Assembly: GCA_035438745.1 (NCBI GenBank)
Contig: DAORIX010000004.1
Location: 1 to 53,721, forward strand
Source: Minisyncoccota bacterium
Lineage (GTDB): Bacteria; Patescibacteriota; Minisyncoccia; Phycocordibacterales; UBA6065
Length of the DNA: 53,721 nt
Direction: 5' to 3'
Within the stretch, counting starts at the first letter, position 1; each line of letters starts with the position of its first letter. Shown in pieces: positions 1-11,521 of the stretch. The translations under genes were made by a program, and so were the position numbers. A model generated the notes under the pieces. That model searched no databases. It saw only the letters and a program-made list of their open reading frames with translations, and was not told the origin of the DNA.

Positions 1-130
1 ACCGAAGGGAGCGTGCGAGGCGCAAGTATCATTCGTCAAAATCCTGCGGATTTTGCCCGAAATACATTCGAACTTCGTCCAATACACACCGCCAACTTAA
101 AATCCCGCCCTTTTGGGCGGTGATTTTGTT

Positions 131-266
131 TGGTGGAGAGGAGCAGGGACGGGTGTGCCTGCGTGGGAGATTCGAAGCCCGGTTGAGTATATTTTATGAG
201 CAAAGCGAAATAAAATATCCAACCGTGGGTACTGGTCCTGTAAGGACCGAATCTCTCACCCTCCGC
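131..266. repeat. Palindromic structured element with inverted tRNA-3'-end-like termini (tRNA-associated REP/MITE-like or att remnant)
   Basis: Left end TGGTGGAGAGG...GGGAGATTCGAA is the reverse complement of a tRNA-like 3' end. Right end CGAATCTCTCACCCTCCGC resembles a tRNA-Ser 3' end. Nested inverted repeats: GAGATTCG/CGAATCTC, CGGTTG/CAACCG, ATATTTTAT/ATAAAATAT, GGTCCT/AGGACC. Confidence 0.5.
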
Positions 267-274
267 GTTGTATC

Positions 275-306
275 AAAAAAGCCTGTCACGCATGGTGACA
301 GGCTTT
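275..306 (-). terminator. Rho-independent terminator of the minus-strand ncRNA
   Basis: AAAAAAGCCTGTCAC-GCATG-GTGACAGGCTTT; U6 tract on the minus strand. Confidence 0.85.
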
Positions 307-307
307 A

Positions 308-510
308 GGTAACAAACCTCAATTCAATCAGCAGAGAGTGGTATTTCACATTGTCGCCTCTTCTTTTTCTAGCGAAAAAGCCTCAACAGCTCCCACGTAT
401 TCTACACATTTGCTTTTCTCTTATTGGTCCAGTTTCGGGCATCGAACCCGACTACTCGTCCAGTTTTTGGCCGAGGTGTCGCCACCATGACAAACCGTTG
501 TTACTTACCC
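308..510 (-). ncRNA. Candidate ~200-nt structured RNA: tRNA-like domain fused to a 23S rRNA L1-stalk (H76-H78) homolog
   Basis: Minus strand contains UGUGUAGAAUACGUGGGAGCUGUUGAGGCUUUUUC-GCUA-GAAAAAGAAGAGGCGACAAUGUGAAAUACCACUCU, which aligns by eye with E. coli 23S ~2109-2181. An upstream cloverleaf has a UUCGAUG loop and ends in ACCA. The 5' GUAACAA pairs with the 3' UUGUUAC. Flanked by a promoter and a terminator. Confidence 0.75.
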
Positions 511-517
511 AAATGAG

Positions 518-545
518 ATACTAGTTTATTTTAATCTTAAGTCAA
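518..545 (-). promoter_or_regulatory. Sigma70 promoter for the ncRNA
   Basis: TTGACT (545-540), 16 bp, TAGTAT (523-518); predicted TSS ~510. Confidence 0.7.
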
Positions 546-555
546 GGACTATTTT

Positions 556-585
556 TTGACCCTTGCTTGTAAAGGTTTGTATAAT
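556..585 (+). promoter_or_regulatory. Divergent sigma70-like promoter with no plus-strand gene downstream
   Basis: TTGACC (556-561), 18 bp, TATAAT (580-585). Confidence 0.45.
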
Positions 586-601
586 TAATTTCCAATACAA
601 T

Positions 602-636
602 AAAAAATGCCAACGAGGGTTCGTCGTTGGCATTTT
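602..636 (-). terminator. Terminator of the 654-998 gene
   Basis: AAAATGCCAACGA...TCGTTGGCATTTT 13-bp stem, U-tract on the minus strand. Confidence 0.8.
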
Positions 637-653
637 GGGGTAGGGTTCAGACG

Positions 654-998
654 CTATAGTTTCAAAATCCTGCGTTCTGCACGAGACAGTTTTGCAAGGG
701 CTTTTTCCTTTACCTTTACGAGTTCAGATTCATCACTGAAGATGGTTACGGGTTCTACTTCTGTGATGTTGTACCCCACAGTTCCATCAGTGAGAACTAG
801 TATCTTTTTTGTGTGGTGCCAGTCTGCACCTGTCTGAACTCCTGCAAACGCTTGTGCGACATCTTGATTCTTGAAGACTCCAATTGATTCTGATTTCCGT
901 CCATCATCATCAACACGATACACTTCGGTCATCTCGATAATCCTGAATCCTTTGAGGTCTTTGTCGACTAATTTTTTAATTTCGGCATATTTAGCCAT
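654..998 (-). CDS. Hypothetical protein (114 aa), phage/accessory-like, C-terminal ALAKLSxxERxxL motif
   Basis: ORF with AAGGAG SD (1010-1005) before ATG at 998, own promoter TAGACT-17-TAGTAT (1063-1035) and own terminator. Confidence 0.75.
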   Translation of the reverse strand: MAKYAEIKKLVDKDLKGFRIIEMTEVYRVDDDGRKSESIGVFKNQDVAQAFAGVQTGADWHHTKKILVLTDGTVGYNITEVEPVTIFSDESELVKVKEKALAKLSRAERRILKL

Positions 999-1076
999 GT
1001 GCATCTCCTTGGTTTGATTTTGCTTTCTGGGGAGATACTACCTGAGACAGGGAAACAAGTCTAGATTTTTTATTTC

Positions 1077-1442
1077 TTACTCTCCCAACTCACATCCTGT
1101 TATTTCTGCGAGACCTTTGAGACCTTGTTCTCCGGTAAATTTATTTCCTTGAGCATCTATCCATGTAGGGTAACCCTCAATTCCTTTTTCGAGACAGATT
1201 TGTTGATTTTCCGGACATTCAACGTAAGGAACGTGCTTGAAAGCATCACCGAAATGTGATTTTTCATTTTGGCAGTGTGAGCACCATGAGGCTCCATACA
1301 TTGTCATGTTTTTTGATGCGAGGCATTGTGCAAAAGCAACAATGTTTTCTCTTGGAGCTTCTCCTGCTTGTTTCTTTGAGGTGAGGTAGAGGCCTCCGAG
1401 TATGAGAGCGATGAGGAGGGTATAAGAAATTATTTTTTTCAT
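1077..1442 (-). CDS. Membrane-anchored thioredoxin-fold protein (VKOR-associated Trx-like)
   Basis: N-terminal TM segment; GASWCSHC; YVECPE...CLEKGIEGYPTW. Confidence 0.85.
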   Translation of the reverse strand: MKKIISYTLLIALILGGLYLTSKKQAGEAPRENIVAFAQCLASKNMTMYGASWCSHCQNEKSHFGDAFKHVPYVECPENQQICLEKGIEGYPTWIDAQGNKFTGEQGLKGLAEITGCELGE

Positions 1443-1445
1443 AGG

Positions 1446-1946
1446 TTATTCTTTACAACAATTTACAAGATTTTTCATAATGTCGTCATAGGTCATAGGT
1501 TTTTCGCTTTCCATGGTTTTGATTACATCAGGACCACTTACAATTTTTAGCCTCAGTGCGAAAAAGAGATTGAATGTTTTGTATGCAAAAGCAAACATCT
1601 CCTGGGAGTCTTTTTTCTTTCCATCCGATTGGAGCTTGGTACCCACTTCCATGAGTCGCATGGTTGTAGAGAGGAGGTGTTTTGAAATGCACCAGCTTTC
1701 ACCTTCAGTTTTAGGTATCATGCGCGCAAGGAGAGTTTTTCGCATCTCTCTGATTTCGTGTACGAGATCGTAGTATTCTGTTTTGTCTGTTTTTGCACCG
1801 GTAAAGAAAAAGTGCTCTTCGAGACTGATGAGATTCATGACGGCAATCGCCAAATCTTCTTCGGTTGAGAGGTCAACACCGCTTTTTTTTGCTTGTTCAA
1901 CTTTTTTTGTGAGCTCCTCAATGCTCATGATGTTTTTGTTGATCAT
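1446..1946 (-). CDS. Conserved hypothetical helical protein with WCISKH and C-terminal CC motifs
   Basis: Long ORF tightly packed (3-4 nt gaps) in an operon between ccdA-like and trx-like genes. Confidence 0.8.
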   Translation of the reverse strand: MINKNIMSIEELTKKVEQAKKSGVDLSTEEDLAIAVMNLISLEEHFFFTGAKTDKTEYYDLVHEIREMRKTLLARMIPKTEGESWCISKHLLSTTMRLMEVGTKLQSDGKKKDSQEMFAFAYKTFNLFFALRLKIVSGPDVIKTMESEKPMTYDDIMKNLVNCCKE

Positions 1947-3233: not shown

Positions 3234-3626
3234 ATGAAAGGATATATATCAAATATAGAAAAGAGCACGCTCGAGAATTCTCACTTTAGAAAGGTGCTTT
3301 ATACCACAACACAGAGCCAGCTCGTGCTCATGTCGCTTTTGCCGGGCGAAGAGATTGGGGAGGAGATACATGATGTTGATCAGTTTTTGCGTATCGAGCA
3401 GGGTACAGGCATGGCAGTACTTGATGACGTTCCTCATCCTATCGAAGACGGTAGTGCTATCGTGGTACCAATTGGTACAAAGCATAATGTGGTGAATACA
3501 GGAAAGGATTCAATGAAGCTCTATAGTTTGTATATGCCACCACACCATAAGGACGGCACCGTACACGAGACAAAGGCTCAGGCCGAATCAGATGACGAGC
3601 ATTTTGATGGTGTAACGTCGGCGTAG
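3234..3626 (+). CDS. Cupin domain protein
   Basis: EIGEEIHDVDQFLRIEQG...VPIGTKHNVVN cupin motifs. Confidence 0.9.
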   Translation: MKGYISNIEKSTLENSHFRKVLYTTTQSQLVLMSLLPGEEIGEEIHDVDQFLRIEQGTGMAVLDDVPHPIEDGSAIVVPIGTKHNVVNTGKDSMKLYSLYMPPHHKDGTVHETKAQAESDDEHFDGVTSA

Positions 3627-3709
3627 TCTTTTTAGTTGTAAAGTAGAGAGAGAAGCAGTAATGTGTGGAGTATATCTTTAGGTAGTAGTTTAATTTTTAA
3701 AAAACAAAT

Positions 3710-4261
3710 ATGAAAAAATGGATTGTAATAATCGGAATTGTAGTGGTGTTGGTGCTTTGGGGTATGAGCTCATATAACACGCTCGTTTCTTTGAACGAGT
3801 CAGTTGATGGTCAGTGGGCGCAAGTCGAAACTCAGTATCAAAGACGCTTTGATCTCATTCCAAATCTCGTTGAGTCTGTAAAGGGTGTGATGGCTCAGGA
3901 GGTTGAGATTTTCACAGCGATCGCAGAAGCCCGAACTCGCTACTCAGGAGCAATGACTGTTGATGAAAAAGCGCAAGCAGCAGGACAGGTTGAGAGCGCT
4001 CTCGGACGCTTGCTCGTTATTACTGAAAATTATCCGCAATTGAAATCATCAGACGCTGTACAGACACTTATGGTTCAAATAGAGGGAACAGAAAACCGTG
4101 TGAGCGTTGAGCGTGGTCGCTTTAACGAATTTGTAAGACAGTACAATGTGCTTACAAAACGTGTTCCTGGAGTGATTGTGGCAAAACTATTTGGTTTTGG
4201 TGAGCGCGAATACTTTGAAAGCGCAGAAGGATCAGAAGAGGCTCCAAAGGTTTCATTCTAA
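3710..4261 (+). CDS. lemA: LemA family protein
   Basis: N-terminal TM segment; QYQRRFDLIPNLV; ENYPQLKS; GTENRVSVERGRFN. Confidence 0.95.
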   Translation: MKKWIVIIGIVVVLVLWGMSSYNTLVSLNESVDGQWAQVETQYQRRFDLIPNLVESVKGVMAQEVEIFTAIAEARTRYSGAMTVDEKAQAAGQVESALGRLLVITENYPQLKSSDAVQTLMVQIEGTENRVSVERGRFNEFVRQYNVLTKRVPGVIVAKLFGFGEREYFESAEGSEEAPKVSF

Positions 4262-4273
4262 CGAACGTTCACT

Positions 4274-5128
4274 ATGAAGTGGTTACTCTCTTTTGTGGCG
4301 ATATGGTGCGCACCTCTCTTTGTGTACGCATATACAAGTCCCGGTACTCCTACAGGGTTTGTTAATGATTTCAGTGGGTTGCTACAAGTAGAAGAGAGAT
4401 CATCTCTCGAGGCAACGCTCAGTACCTTTGAAAAGGAAACAGGCAACGAAATCACTGTTGTTACCATAGAGAGTCTCGGAGACGAAACGGTTGAGACGTA
4501 TGCGGTAAAACTTTTTGAGGAATGGAAAATAGGAAAAGAAAAGTACGATAACGGCATTCTTTTTCTCATTGTTCCGACGGAGCGTCAGATGAGGCTTGAG
4601 GTTGGGTACGGTCTTGAGGGTGCTCTGCCGGACGCTCTCACATCTCAGATTATGAGGACTATTACCACTCCGGATTTCCAGAAGGGTGACTATGCGGGAG
4701 GTATAGCGCGCACTGTTGATGCTCTCATGTCCGCGACTCGTGGTGAGTATCAGGTTACGGAACAAAAGGAGTCTCGAGGTTTTCCGCTGGAGTTTTTCTT
4801 TTTTCTTTTTTTCATACTACCGACATGGCTTGGTAGTATACTCGGTCGTTCGAAATCATGGTGGGCGGGAGGTGTAATCGGAGGTATTGCGGGAATTATT
4901 CTCTCTGTTGTTTTTGGTTTTTTCTATATCGGTATCGCGTCTCTCGTTGTACTCATTCCTCTGGGATTGTTTTTTGATTACATAGTTTCTCGTTCGTATA
5001 GCAAGGCGCTCGCTTCGGGACTTCACGCGCCATGGTGGACAGGTGGAGGCAAGGGAGGTATGGGAGGAGGCTTTGGTGGATTTGGAGGCGGAGGATCAGG
5101 TGGAGGAGGTTCATCAGGACGATGGTAA
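4274..5128 (+). CDS. TPM domain (YgcG-like) membrane protein with Gly-rich tail
   Basis: VNDFSGLL; DNGILFLI...RLEVGYGLEGALPD; GGFGGFGGGGSGGGG; follows lemA. Confidence 0.92.
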   Translation: MKWLLSFVAIWCAPLFVYAYTSPGTPTGFVNDFSGLLQVEERSSLEATLSTFEKETGNEITVVTIESLGDETVETYAVKLFEEWKIGKEKYDNGILFLIVPTERQMRLEVGYGLEGALPDALTSQIMRTITTPDFQKGDYAGGIARTVDALMSATRGEYQVTEQKESRGFPLEFFFFLFFILPTWLGSILGRSKSWWAGGVIGGIAGIILSVVFGFFYIGIASLVVLIPLGLFFDYIVSRSYSKALASGLHAPWWTGGGKGGMGGGFGGFGGGGSGGGGSSGRW

Positions 5129-9280: not shown

Positions 9281-11521
9281 TTATTCCGCTTTTTTCTTTT
9301 TGGTGAAGCCTCTTGGTTTTTTTGGCTCTTTGATTATTTCGAGTGCTCGGTTGAGTTCGATTGTATATACGTCGTCTGGTTTTTTTACTGATCTAAAATC
9401 TTTGTCATGCACAACGTAGGGACCAAATCTTCCTATGTTTGCGGTAATGGTCTTTCCTGTGTCAGGGTGCGTTCCGAGGGTGCGAGGGAGTGTGAGAAGG
9501 TGTACAGACTGTTCTAGTGTTATTTGCGCAGGGTCTATCTCTTTTGGAATAGACGCCATTTTTGCTTTTTGTGGCTGAACCTCTTCTGTTGGTTCTACTC
9601 CTTCTGTCTTTTTCTTTTTTCGTTTTGGAGGGGCTTTGACGGTTTCTCCCATTTGTACATACGGACCATAGCGTCCCGTCTTTACCGTGATAGGCAGACC
9701 TGTTTCTGGGTGATTTCCAATAACTCGGTCTTTCGGAACCTCACTTCCATCGAGCATAAGCGCTCCGTCACAATCAGGATAACGAGAGCAGGAGAGAAAC
9801 TTTCCAGCACGTCCCAGTTTGATCACCATAGAGCTTCCACACTTTGGACACGTCATGTGTGCGGGGGCATCTCCGAGCGTTGTTGCTTTGTCGAGTTTGT
9901 CTTTGAGTTTTACTTCTTTGAGGAAAGGTTTATAAAATTCTGAAAGTGTTTTTTCGTATGTTCGTTTTCCTTCTGCGATAGCATCGAGCTTGTCTTCCAT
10001 TTCTGCCGTAAAGGTGTCGCTGATGTAGTCTTTGAAGTTATCTTCGAGGAATGAAGAAACCACATCACCTGTGTCTGTTGGTTTGAGTGAACGTCCTTCT
10101 TTCTCTACATACCCGCGTGTTTCAATAGTGCGAATAATAGAAGCGTAGGTCGAAGGTCGTCCGATACCTCGTGTTTCAAGTTCTTTTACAAGACCGGCTT
10201 CAGTGTATCGTGGTGGTGGTTCAGTTTGTTTTTCTTCGGTGCGTACATCAAGCACATGCAGTTTTTCTCCTTTTGTTACTTTTGGAAGTTCTACTTCTTC
10301 GCCTCGTGAGAGGGGATCGGCAGAAAGCCATCCTAAAGAGATCATGCGTGAACCATTTGCTTGAAATGATGGAATAGTTTCTTTTTCTGTCGAAGCGGTG
10401 ATTTTTGTTCGGAGTATTTTCGCATCAGCCATCTGAGAAGAAATAGTGCGTGCCCAGATGAGAGCATAGAGTTTTTGTTGTTCAGGATTTGCTCCTGCTT
10501 TTTCTACTTCTGCGTGTGTTGGACGAATGGCTTCGTGTGCCTCTTGTGCGTTTTTTGATTTGGTTGCGTATGTCTGAAGCGCTACGAGCTCTTTACCGTA
10601 TTTTTTTGTAATTACACTCGCGATGCTCGTTACTGCTTGTGCGCTGAGGTTTGTCGAGTCTGTACGCATGTAGGTAATGAGACCGGCCTCGTAGAGGCGC
10701 TGTGCAACCTGCATGGTTCGTGAAGGTGAAAAGCCAAGGCGAGAGCTCGCTGTTTGTTGTAGTGTTGATGTGGTAAAAGGCGCACGAGGAGATCTCTTTG
10801 TTTCACTTTCTTCAACGCTGGTGACTATCCATGATTCTTTTTTTCCGCGTAACACAATGTCGTCTACTTGTTTTTTATCACGAGGCTCAACCGAACATTC
10901 GAGAGGAAGAGAATCTTTTTTCTGTGTTTTGGTGTCTGCGGTAATACGCCAAAATGTCTCTGGTTTGAATGCTCTGATTTCACGCTCGCGTTCCATGATG
11001 ATACGTAGAGCAGGGGACTGCACACGACCTGCTGAGAGGCCGTAGCGTACTTTTTTCCATATAATCCCCGAAAGGTCATAACCTACGAGCCTATCGAGCA
11101 CACGGCGGGCTTCCTGTGCTTCCTTGAGGTTTTCATCGATAGCACGAGGATGTTTGAGCGCCTCAATAATGGCGTCTTTGGTGATTTCGTGGAATGCAAC
11201 GCGCTTTACATTTTTACCTTTGAAACCACAGGCCTCAGCAATATGCCATGCGATTGCTTCTCCTTCTCGGTCGGGGTCGGTTGCGAGGAGTACTTCGTCC
11301 GCCTTTTTTGCTAGCGACATAATTTCGGCGAGTACCTTTTCTTTTCCTGCGGACACTTCGTAGTGTGGAACAAAACCTGCCTCTATATCAATTGCTTTTT
11401 TGTTTGACTTTGGTAGGTCACGCACATGTCCTATGGATGCGACGACGGTGTATTCGCCACCGAGGTATTTGCCGATTGTTTTTGCTTTTGCTGGCGACTC
11501 AACGATGAGTAGTTTTGACAT
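9281..11521 (-). CDS. topA: DNA topoisomerase I with zinc ribbon and C-terminal Topo_C repeats
   Basis: LIVESPAKAK; ATDPDREGEAI; SAGRVQS; LITYMRTDS; CPKCG; GRYGPY/GRFGPY repeats. Start moved to 11521. Confidence 0.97.
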   Translation of the reverse strand: MSKLLIVESPAKAKTIGKYLGGEYTVVASIGHVRDLPKSNKKAIDIEAGFVPHYEVSAGKEKVLAEIMSLAKKADEVLLATDPDREGEAIAWHIAEACGFKGKNVKRVAFHEITKDAIIEALKHPRAIDENLKEAQEARRVLDRLVGYDLSGIIWKKVRYGLSAGRVQSPALRIIMEREREIRAFKPETFWRITADTKTQKKDSLPLECSVEPRDKKQVDDIVLRGKKESWIVTSVEESETKRSPRAPFTTSTLQQTASSRLGFSPSRTMQVAQRLYEAGLITYMRTDSTNLSAQAVTSIASVITKKYGKELVALQTYATKSKNAQEAHEAIRPTHAEVEKAGANPEQQKLYALIWARTISSQMADAKILRTKITASTEKETIPSFQANGSRMISLGWLSADPLSRGEEVELPKVTKGEKLHVLDVRTEEKQTEPPPRYTEAGLVKELETRGIGRPSTYASIIRTIETRGYVEKEGRSLKPTDTGDVVSSFLEDNFKDYISDTFTAEMEDKLDAIAEGKRTYEKTLSEFYKPFLKEVKLKDKLDKATTLGDAPAHMTCPKCGSSMVIKLGRAGKFLSCSRYPDCDGALMLDGSEVPKDRVIGNHPETGLPITVKTGRYGPYVQMGETVKAPPKRKKKKTEGVEPTEEVQPQKAKMASIPKEIDPAQITLEQSVHLLTLPRTLGTHPDTGKTITANIGRFGPYVVHDKDFRSVKKPDDVYTIELNRALEIIKEPKKPRGFTKKKKAE

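Follow-up and report, generated by a model that had tools for sequence, protein, structure and literature searches.

A free-standing homologue of the 23S rRNA L1 stalk in an apparently undescribed small RNA of Parcubacteria-type bacteria and large viruses

In the ribosome, in RNase P and in T-box leaders, a double T-loop platform stacks on the G19-C56 face of the transfer RNA (tRNA) elbow. In the L1 stalk of 23S ribosomal RNA (rRNA), which comprises helices H76 to H78, the H77/H78 junction is in addition the site of ribosomal protein uL1. Stem I of the T-box and the S-domain of RNase P carry interdigitated double T-loop platforms (Lehmann et al. 2013, PMC3664808; PMC4810234), and both these analogues and the L1-stalk head itself stack on the tRNA elbow (PMC3664808, PMC4810234). 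Here, we analyse a small RNA gene of a Minisyncoccota bacterium that carries such a stalk outside the ribosome. It lies on the minus strand, close to the start of contig DAORIX010000004.1 (assembly GCA_035438745.1), whose positions 1 to 53,721 form the stretch of 53,721 nucleotides (nt) referred to hereafter as the window. The gene had been noticed in a preliminary description made without database searches.

The small RNA and its homologues

Positions 414–330 of the minus strand read UGUGUAGAAUACGUGGGAGCUGUUGAGG-CUUUUUC-GCUA-GAAAAAG-AAGAGGCGACAAUGUGAAAUACCACUCUCU, a string that the preliminary description had placed about 5 nt off, at 420–325. When the RNA was aligned with all 2,904 nt of Escherichia coli 23S rRNA, the top Smith–Waterman match was the L1 stalk (2107–2180, whose sequence the preliminary description gives correctly), with a score of 60 versus 39.8 ± 4.6 for 200 shuffles (shuffle maximum 53). 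The local search with the Rfam model LSU_rRNA_bacteria (RF02541) proposed at that stage aligned window positions 335–408 (minus strand) with model positions 2135–2206 (31.8 bits, E = 2.2e-8), a match obtained with 300–520 searched alone, as Infernal filters removed it for 700 nt or for the whole window. The resulting alignment bears out the compensatory changes claimed at the base of H78, where E. coli has GGC/GCC and the window GCU/GGC: one G-C pair is kept, a second G-C becomes C-G, and a C-G becomes U-G. A blastn search of E. coli genomes with the RNA as query gave zero matches, so that the similarity to 23S rRNA is visible only through Smith–Waterman or covariance-model alignment. Rfam scans detected no large subunit (LSU) rRNA sequence other than the L1-stalk match in the window or in the homologous loci presented below, and the stalk is not embedded in 23S rRNA but flanked by a promoter, a tRNA-like arm, a terminator and protein genes; the notion of a free-standing copy devoid of neighbouring rRNA is therefore upheld. 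On the basis of these alignments, 414–330 is a homologue of 23S helices H76–H78.

This homologue is part of a stand-alone small RNA gene with its own promoter and terminator (table 1), both of which had been anticipated. In the promoter, the −35 box TTGACT (545–540) and the −10 box TAGTAT (523–518) are separated by 16 nt, for a predicted start near 511, and in the alignments TTGAC-type boxes occupy the equivalent place in many homologues. The terminator, GCCUGUCAC-CAUGC-GUGACAGGC followed by U6, is a 9-base-pair (bp), GC-rich hairpin to which the terminator stem of the Rfam Thr_leader family matches locally, and homologues finish in a comparable hairpin and U-tract. The earlier statement that no gene lies downstream holds insofar as none stands behind the terminator, but the next feature is a convergent tRNA-Ser(GGA), of which a 3′ fragment is found here. 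On the plus strand, a near-consensus promoter (TTGACC-18-TATAAT, 11/12; 556–585) is oriented away from the RNA gene and leads into the 3′ end of the adjacent gene, which encodes a protein of 116 amino acids (aa); it could drive an antisense transcript, or be due to chance.

A 246-nt stretch covering the RNA has a minimum free energy (MFE) z of −3.8 compared with shuffles. The RNA was retrieved from RNA-seq assemblies of more than eight runs from at least six studies, in contigs spanning 317–476, 363–530, 248–446 and 248–556, and in three low-depth runs the sole contigs on window 1–1600 held the RNA, either alone or together with the tRNA-Ser next to it. A sister strain differs by 2 substitutions in 203 nt (1%) in the RNA, by 8–9 in 108 nt (approx. 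8%) in the spacer 546–653 and by 1.4–1.9% in the flanking genes. The RNA is expressed, and probably stable.

Table 1. Features of the RNA gene and of its surroundings in the window (strands of a helix are given 5′ strand first).
Feature	Positions	Strand	Evidence
Sigma70-like promoter, TTGACT-16-TAGTAT	518–545	−	consensus scan, 9/12
Whole small RNA transcript, body approx. 200 nt plus terminator	275–513	−	MFE z, RNA-seq contigs
P1, 5′ strand UUUGGGUAAGUAACA	499–513	−	helix search; own-versus-swapped strand permutation
P2, 5′ strand CGGUU (the family's conserved AACRG box), acceptor-like stem	493–497	−	pairs with AACUG 434–430
Hairpin GGUG-GCGA-CACC, GNRA-type loop, at the tRNA D-arm position	475–486	−	sequence, MFE fold
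T-arm, stem UCGGG/CCCGA, tRNA-type T-loop UUCGAUG	435–451	−	sequence reading
P2, 3′ strand AACUG, directly after the T-stem as in tRNA	430–434	−	pairing with 497–493
H76, 5′ strand AGAGA	417–421	−	pairs with UCUCU 337–333 (H76 3′ strand)
L1-stalk homologue (H76-H77-H78)	330–414	−	E. coli 23S alignment, RF02541 local match, RNAalifold
T-loop 1, GUAGAAUAC	405–397	−	part of L1-stalk homologue
H77, GUGG/CCAC	396–393 / 341–338	−	part of L1-stalk homologue
H78 base, GCU/GGC	390–388 / 358–356	−	part of L1-stalk homologue
H78 distal stem, loop GCUA	380–374 / 369–363, loop 373–370	−	part of L1-stalk homologue
T-loop 2, UGAAAUA	348–342	−	part of L1-stalk homologue
Junction GAAUUGAGG (325–317), then P1 3′ strand UUUGUUACCUAAA (316–304)	304–325	−	family comparison
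Intrinsic terminator, stem 303–295 / 289–281, loop CAUGC, U-tract 280–275	275–303	−	sequence reading
tRNA-Ser(GGA) 3′ fragment and downstream flank, convergent with the RNA gene	248–285	+	97% identity to L007 10978–11015

The fold, in the form typical of the candidate phyla radiation (CPR), forms a three-way junction of a closing stem (P1), a tRNA-like acceptor/T-arm minihelix and the L1-stalk arm. The two ends pair in P1, as had been proposed (GUAACA 504–499 with UGUUAC 314–309), with UUUGG/CUAAA added across a bulge; other members pair GGCAUGGAA/UUCCGUGCC, GAUGUGGAA/UUCCACGUC or GCUCGAAAG/UUUUCGAGC. The 5′ half holds a canonical GUUCGAUGC T-loop within the minihelix. Its acceptor-like stem, P2, starts with the AACRG box one or two A after P1, and its 3′ strand (P2′) begins 0–3 nt past the T-stem; the duplex varies from CGGUU/AACUG in the window to CGGCU/AGCCG, CAGC/GCUG, CAACG/CGUUG, CGACAUU/GGUGUCG and ACAUACU/AGUGUGU elsewhere. 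After P2′, the window reads GACCA, which resembles the remnant of a tRNA 3′ end, and the homologous locus L016 has G-CCA (GGCUG-G-CCA). At the D-arm position, homologues vary in both the length and the sequence of the hairpin region. With P2 stacked on the T-arm without a gap and variable hairpins in place of the D and anticodon arms, this arm is a degenerate tRNA. Past P2′ come a short linker, H76, the stalk head, a junction with the family consensus UUGARGG, and the 3′ strand of P1. The two interdigitated T-loops from which the flat platform of the L1-stalk head is built are both present in the stalk arm, and the RNA exposes this head at one arm's tip and, at another's, a tRNA-like T-loop. 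The preliminary description had overlooked the minihelix, as well as the viral members in tRNA arrays and the chimeric or variable contig below position 248, both presented below.

Full-length MAFFT alignment with RNAalifold misaligned P1 and P2 because of length variation, and these helices and H76 were therefore tested by permutation, each member's own strands being compared with strands swapped between members. None of 5000 permutations reached the observed mean for P1, none of 5000 the observed complementarity of H76, and none of 20000 the observed mean for P2 with both sides anchored; with one side anchored, the signal of P2, whose sequence is semi-conserved, was weak (271/5000). Folding one flank against the other with RNA duplexfold returned meaningless long duplexes. 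Two other candidates were discarded: 'CUGG' after the T-arm does not pair with tRNA NCCA in the manner of a T-box, since it forms an internal helix with the 5′ AACRG box, the two covarying, and strings such as AGGAUUCCAUG after the L1 arm are the P1 3′ strand rather than CR-I of RNase P, for which Rfam gave no match.

Among 185,579 species genomes, a pattern requiring the two L1 T-loops after a T-loop hairpin matched 7 loci, a lower bound given how strict the pattern is; six of them carry the label Parcubacteria or Saccharibacteria, and the seventh belongs to a 'Gammaproteobacteria' bin. A similar pattern gave 32 metagenome loci, of which one (L027) is a real 23S rRNA and several are duplicates. 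Altogether, these scans brought the number of distinct homologues from Parcubacteria-type (CPR) genomes and metagenomes to about 30, and the CPR-type elements of the window copy are common to at least 18 curated homologues. The gathering score of RF02541 is reached by the free-standing copies L009, L010, L012, L016, L042, L050 and L052 (53.7–63.1 bits), whose matches cover model positions approximately 2126–2215 only.

When 34 family members were submitted to RNAalifold, H77 and H78 were recovered, with compensatory changes in 10 of the 15 pairs. Within the seven pairs of the distal H78 stem, up to 18 sequences are altered on both sides, and the second pair at the H78 base is A-U in 19 sequences, G-C in 12 and C-G in 3. 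T-stems covary as well (15 distinct duplexes in 18 sequences). GGUUCRAnnCC is found in all CPR-type homologues, part of it having been demanded by the search pattern; likewise, the patterns themselves fixed GUAGnAUAnGUGG and GAAAUACC(AC), whose invariance is not evidence. As judged from the covariation of H78 and the permutation tests on P1, H76 and P2, this is an RNA family under selection for structure, as suspected from the window copy. Beyond the partial LSU match, Rfam 15 has no model for it, and a full-text literature search (subscription literature being outside its reach) found no description of such an RNA, in agreement with the earlier remark that no described family like it was known to the author. 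CPR bacteria and large viruses thus apparently share an RNA family that has gone undescribed, its members being small RNAs of a new kind made from known modules.

Could the gene instead be a functionless relic, either a decaying rRNA fragment or an assembly artefact? Fragments of rRNA do get mis-assembled, and the contig is chimeric or variable just past the gene, below 248. Against this, independent Logan assemblies from other studies show the same order of 116-aa gene, RNA and tRNA-Ser, about 38 distinct homologues exhibit compensatory changes, and the gene has its own promoter and terminator with no 23S rRNA around it. Covariation and independent assemblies refute this explanation, whose probability we consider negligible. 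The preliminary description had itself named a lack of homologues with conserved pairing, a lack of transcription and a misassembled rRNA fragment as outcomes that would refute its claim; the homologues, the RNA-seq contigs and the independent assemblies speak against these.

With the T-loop hairpin removed from the pattern, 15 viral contigs were matched, 4 of which are 23S pieces. The approximately eight free-standing viral copies are located on viral contigs of 58–153 kb and in one giant-virus metagenome-assembled genome (MAG), one (L054) adjoining a large terminase and another (L052) lying near a phage-type ligase. Viral copies have no T-arm but a P1 of similar flavour (GGGUGGAA/UUCCAUCC, GGAAACGU/ACGUUUCC). 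In L050, L052, L055, L057 and L059, the element stands within or beside tRNA gene arrays. The place of the tRNA-like arm, immediately 5′ of the stalk element, is taken by a genuine tRNA in L017, identical with L057 (Phe-AAA; MAG GVMAG-M-3300009182-46), and in L033, L035 and L041 (Asp-GUC; Tara Oceans contigs). The Asp-GUC tRNA has an encoded CCA, the true tRNA of L033 and L035 ending in GCCA, and in L033 the L1-stalk element lies inside a run of four tRNA genes. In L060 (12–77, minus strand, of IMGVR_UViG_3300000032_000059), the stalk head shares 89% identity with the E. coli L1 stalk, versus 64–82% for other members, and follows a long, unrelated hairpin and not 23S sequence, which suggests a recent capture from the rRNA of a gamma-proteobacterial host. 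Among cultured phage genomes, blastn with a viral copy retrieved only contaminating 23S rRNA.

Some CPR copies lie near tRNAs too (L013, L016 and L023), and the window copy abuts tRNA-Ser. On the 277-kb CPR contig L042, a complete class-A RNase P RNA (175 bits) is found 135 nt downstream on the same strand, with a terminator between the two (9875–10265 and 10400–10519, minus strand). Flanking protein genes vary by locus (LigA, GatA, PGK, TopA, DnaE, UvrC, LysRS, MurC-like, aminotransferases), and Pfam scans of the neighbouring genes revealed no conserved protein partner. As a separate observation, which may be a coincidence, small open reading frames (ORFs) for zinc ribbons (CxxC...CxxC, 85–88 aa) follow the RNA at two related CPR loci (L009 5547–5804 and L036 563–820), and the phage locus L054 has a zinc-ribbon ORF of an unrelated family (1882–2148) that begins with a strong Shine–Dalgarno sequence and ATG approximately 35 nt past the element.

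These surroundings bear on the possibility that the RNA is a cis-regulatory leader, namely a T-box-like tRNA sensor or a ribosomal protein L1 leader acting on a downstream gene. Stem I of the T-box uses the same double T-loop platform (PMC3664808), and the viral element of L054 has the Shine–Dalgarno sequence and ATG mentioned above behind it. However, the window copy and most CPR copies end in a strong terminator with no gene behind it, the following feature in the window being the convergent tRNA; the RNA has no specifier loop, T-box sequence or antiterminator alternative; and downstream genes are mutually unrelated, with no rplK or rplA nearby. A leader function is thus barely plausible.

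The distribution of the RNA is patchy. Ten contigs with homologues of the 116-aa protein (up to 87% identical; L004–L008 and L063–L067) are without it, including the fully syntenic L007, although L006 and L063 end just past the 116-aa gene and are uninformative on the RNA site. This is relevant to a trans-encoded ribosomal stalk, one of the possibilities raised in the preliminary description, in which the RNA would supply the H76–H78 missing from a split 23S rRNA. The homology to H76–H78 is genuine, and some CPR ribosomes have reduced L1 stalks or no uL1 (PMC9297842); yet the loss of H78 is reported for Parcubacteria 1, Microgenomates, WWE3 and Berkelbacteria, that is, for CPR lineages other than the uL1-lacking Parcubacteria (PMC9297842). 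Moreover, the RNA ends pair as P1 and H76 ends in an internal three-way junction, and because P1 closes the fold, no strand is left to re-form H76 or H75/H79 with 23S rRNA. The RNA is also absent at the syntenic site in relatives and scarce among species genomes (at least the 7 strict-pattern loci given above), its depth in one metatranscriptome (X6) is akin to that of mRNAs, and phage and giant-virus contigs carry it though they have no ribosomes of their own. The closed fold, the patchy distribution and the carriage by phages make a split 23S rRNA very improbable.

Possible roles of the RNA

We tentatively favour, with a probability of about 0.4, an interpretation in which the RNA would be an extraribosomal, trans-acting module docking on the elbow of tRNA or pre-tRNA, with uL1 where this protein is present, and not a piece of the ribosome. 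The stalk head would dock the elbow outside the ribosome, much as its platform suggests, and where uL1 exists the RNA would probably bind it too, because the uL1 site in H77/H78 looks retained. The tRNA-like minihelix may be the relic of a dicistron of tRNA and L1-stalk RNA, of a kind still seen in viral arrays, and it may since have been co-opted, be it to give tRNA-binding enzymes a handle or to act as an internal ligand.

Several points weigh against elbow docking. An isolated stacking platform binds tRNA weakly without a second contact, and no such contact was identified here, tRNA binding itself being predicted only. The conservation of the T-loops was set by the search patterns and is hence silent on the ligand under selection. 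A tRNA gene or an RNase P RNA is found within about 600 nt in only approximately 5 of 27 CPR loci, a modest association, and the 89% identity of L060 would fit a host-specific partner such as uL1 or a recent capture better than a universal tRNA ligand. Finally, the RNA contig of metatranscriptome X6 has a depth of 8x versus 12–25x for neighbouring genes; contig depth is a poor gauge of abundance, and with a value not above that of the neighbours a high abundance of the RNA is not proven.

The main rival is a uL1 sponge or regulator: the free RNA, presenting the high-affinity site of the protein at the H77/H78 junction, would titrate free uL1, altering the autoregulation of the L11 operon or the uL1 content of ribosomes, and phages would use it to manipulate host ribosome synthesis. 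The mRNA target of uL1 is itself a mimic of rRNA. Nucleotides conserved in 23S rRNA around H77/H78 (GUGGGAG, the UGAA/GGAG internal loop and GNC) are kept family-wide, and H78 does not vary in length, any stable tetraloop being accepted. L060, a phage copy, comes close to identity with a gamma-proteobacterial L1 stalk, which suggests either repeated capture from host rRNA or a host-specific partner and keeps the uL1 idea alive. On the other side, the uL1 site needs H77/H78 only, and neither the T-loops, H76, the tRNA-like arm nor the tRNA arrays would be called for; no rplA or rplK lies in any of the loci, leaving no link through genomic context. In addition, a large group of Parcubacteria (OD1-L1) is without uL1 (PMC5220378, PMC9297842), and there would be nothing to sponge if the Nomurabacteria/Paceibacteria-like lineage of the window falls in that group. 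We regard the sponge as unlikely.

Alternatively, the RNA may act as a decoy of the surface formed by the E-site tRNA and the L1 stalk, diverting a factor that recognizes it, such as a toxin or an immune nuclease aimed at tRNA or the stalk, or an E-site-binding ABCF-type factor. The tRNA-like minihelix is united with the L1 head in one closed fold, phage tRNA arrays contain the element, and its patchy distribution is like that of an accessory gene; extra phage tRNAs are indeed a means to counter tRNA-targeting defences. Conversely, the neighbours are housekeeping genes, with neither a defence nor a toxin gene regularly found next to the element, viral copies do without the T-arm, the intramolecular docking geometry is predicted only, and we know of no factor that targets the L1 stalk. 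A decoy appears quite improbable.

Coming back to elbow docking, a broader scenario is possible, albeit doubtful. In this scenario, the L1-stalk head would have been exapted repeatedly as a free-standing, trans-acting module that travels between viral tRNA arrays and CPR chromosomes; the CPR version, fused to a degenerate tRNA, would be an RNA of approximately 200 nt in which the E-site contact, that of the tRNA elbow with the L1 stalk, is reproduced away from the ribosome, so that tRNAs could be captured or presented, or factors reading this contact diverted. If so, this would be a fourth natural context of the elbow-docking platform, after the ribosome, RNase P and T-box leaders. To our knowledge, no earlier bacterial or viral small RNA is a copy of a functional rRNA domain working outside the ribosome, and the RNA would then be the first known 'rRNA domain as small RNA'. 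It would also provide a self-contained model of approximately 200 nt for the recognition of the L1 stalk by tRNA and by uL1, bear on the reasons why many Parcubacteria are able to do without uL1, and point to an unexplored route by which large phages and giant viruses disturb the tRNA or ribosome biology of their hosts. In terms of annotation, such genes are a problem, being missed or mis-called '23S fragments'.

Neighbouring genes and the contig end

The 116-aa protein gene (654–1004, minus strand) encodes no Pfam domain, and its product is 45–94% identical across Nomurabacteria/Paceibacterota-type contigs, where the gene usually lies downstream of a trio coding for a DsbD-TM protein, a hypothetical protein and a thioredoxin-like protein. 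The source names given for homologues of this protein point to a Parcubacterium related to Nomurabacteria/Paceibacterota as the organism of the window. Near one homologue, L064 contains a diversity-generating retroelement (3242–4622; a bAvd-like gene and a reverse transcriptase) that is unrelated to the RNA.

Beyond the terminator, the tRNA-Ser(GGA) is intact in L007, whereas the window keeps its last 23 nt (248–270). In six runs, loose ends at 248 (CACCGAGAGTT and GACTGTGTGTCGGAAACGGCACCGAGAGTT) reveal an intact tRNA-Ser in sister strains, and since these assemblies read into the intact gene, the window below 248 represents a different join. Contig Ga0119868_1000081 (L002), a near-identical twin from the Joint Genome Institute (JGI), diverges from the window again at approximately position 16. 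The first 250 nt or so are a strain-variable or chimeric join at the tRNA T-loop, possibly an integration site. An assignment of window 1–270 to the 3′ end of 16S rRNA was rejected, the similarity not exceeding that of shuffles and Rfam giving no match.

At the very start, window 1–108 (core 60–95) has a word depth of 300–3000x in four metatranscriptome assemblies, compared with 8–43x for 248–1600 and zero for 109–216, and many short contigs branch into differing continuations at 3, 9, 16, 55–60 and 93–95. Present once in the window, the core matches no Rfam family and shows 77% similarity to L004 10472–10524, downstream of the homologous gene in a Nomurabacteria genome. This segment looks like a highly expressed conserved RNA or a repeat. 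Between it and the tRNA-Ser fragment lies a perfect hairpin that resembles a terminator in either direction, each strand having a U-tract (105–120; CCGCCC-UUUU-GGGCGG).

Comparison with known RNA systems

An acceptor/T-arm-type minihelix with a canonical T-loop within a larger non-coding RNA (ncRNA) is also found in YrlA, in the tRNA-like domain of tmRNA and in mascRNA, and Y RNAs are likewise closed by a stem between their 5′ and 3′ ends (PMC4201824). The present RNA differs in having no apparent Ro-binding stem motif, no free CCA end and no tag ORF, and none of YrlA, tmRNA and mascRNA carries an L1 stalk. No Y RNA was matched by Rfam, the rsr/TROVE domain being absent among approximately 45 annotated neighbours; ARAGORN found no tRNA or tmRNA at 308–510, nor in 34 of 39 family extracts, and a match to tmRNA_permuted (E = 4.4) was not significant. 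GOLLD and ROOL are likewise structured ncRNAs located near tRNA genes and common to bacteria and phages; Rfam matched neither of them here, and the small RNA is far smaller (approx. 200–300 nt) and contains a recognizable rRNA domain.

The mRNA leader of rplK-rplA in the L11 operon is, like this RNA, an extraribosomal mimic of rRNA with a uL1 site of the H77/H78 type. However, that leader is a minimal helix with an asymmetric loop in a 5′ untranslated region, whereas the small RNA has the complete stalk head with T-loops and H76, is terminated and is not linked to rplKA, tblastn with E. coli uL1 and uL11 having found no gene for either protein in the window or in any of 67 loci.

Closer in architecture are T-box Stem I and the RNase P S-domain, in which the same elbow-docking module stands at the end of a helical arm of a non-ribosomal RNA. 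These modules are analogous, with another topology and sequence, whereas the small RNA is a homologue of rRNA at the sequence level, H78 included. It is without the specifier and antiterminator of a T-box and without the catalytic core of RNase P (CR-I to CR-V). Rfam gave no T-box match in the window, where a convergent tRNA and no gene follows the terminator, and no match to RF00010 or RF00011 in the window or in the loci with CR-I-like strings.

The closest relative is the L1 stalk of 23S rRNA itself, with which the RNA shares homologous sequence and secondary structure: the T-loops GUAGnAUA and UGAAAUA, the GUGG/CCAC helix H77, and an H78 with a tetraloop and a conserved internal loop, the LSU model scoring both. 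In contrast with that stalk, it stands outside 23S rRNA without H75/H79, has its own promoter and terminator and exists in viral copies too, and its short H76 (5–11 bp) meets P1 and a tRNA-like arm at a junction.

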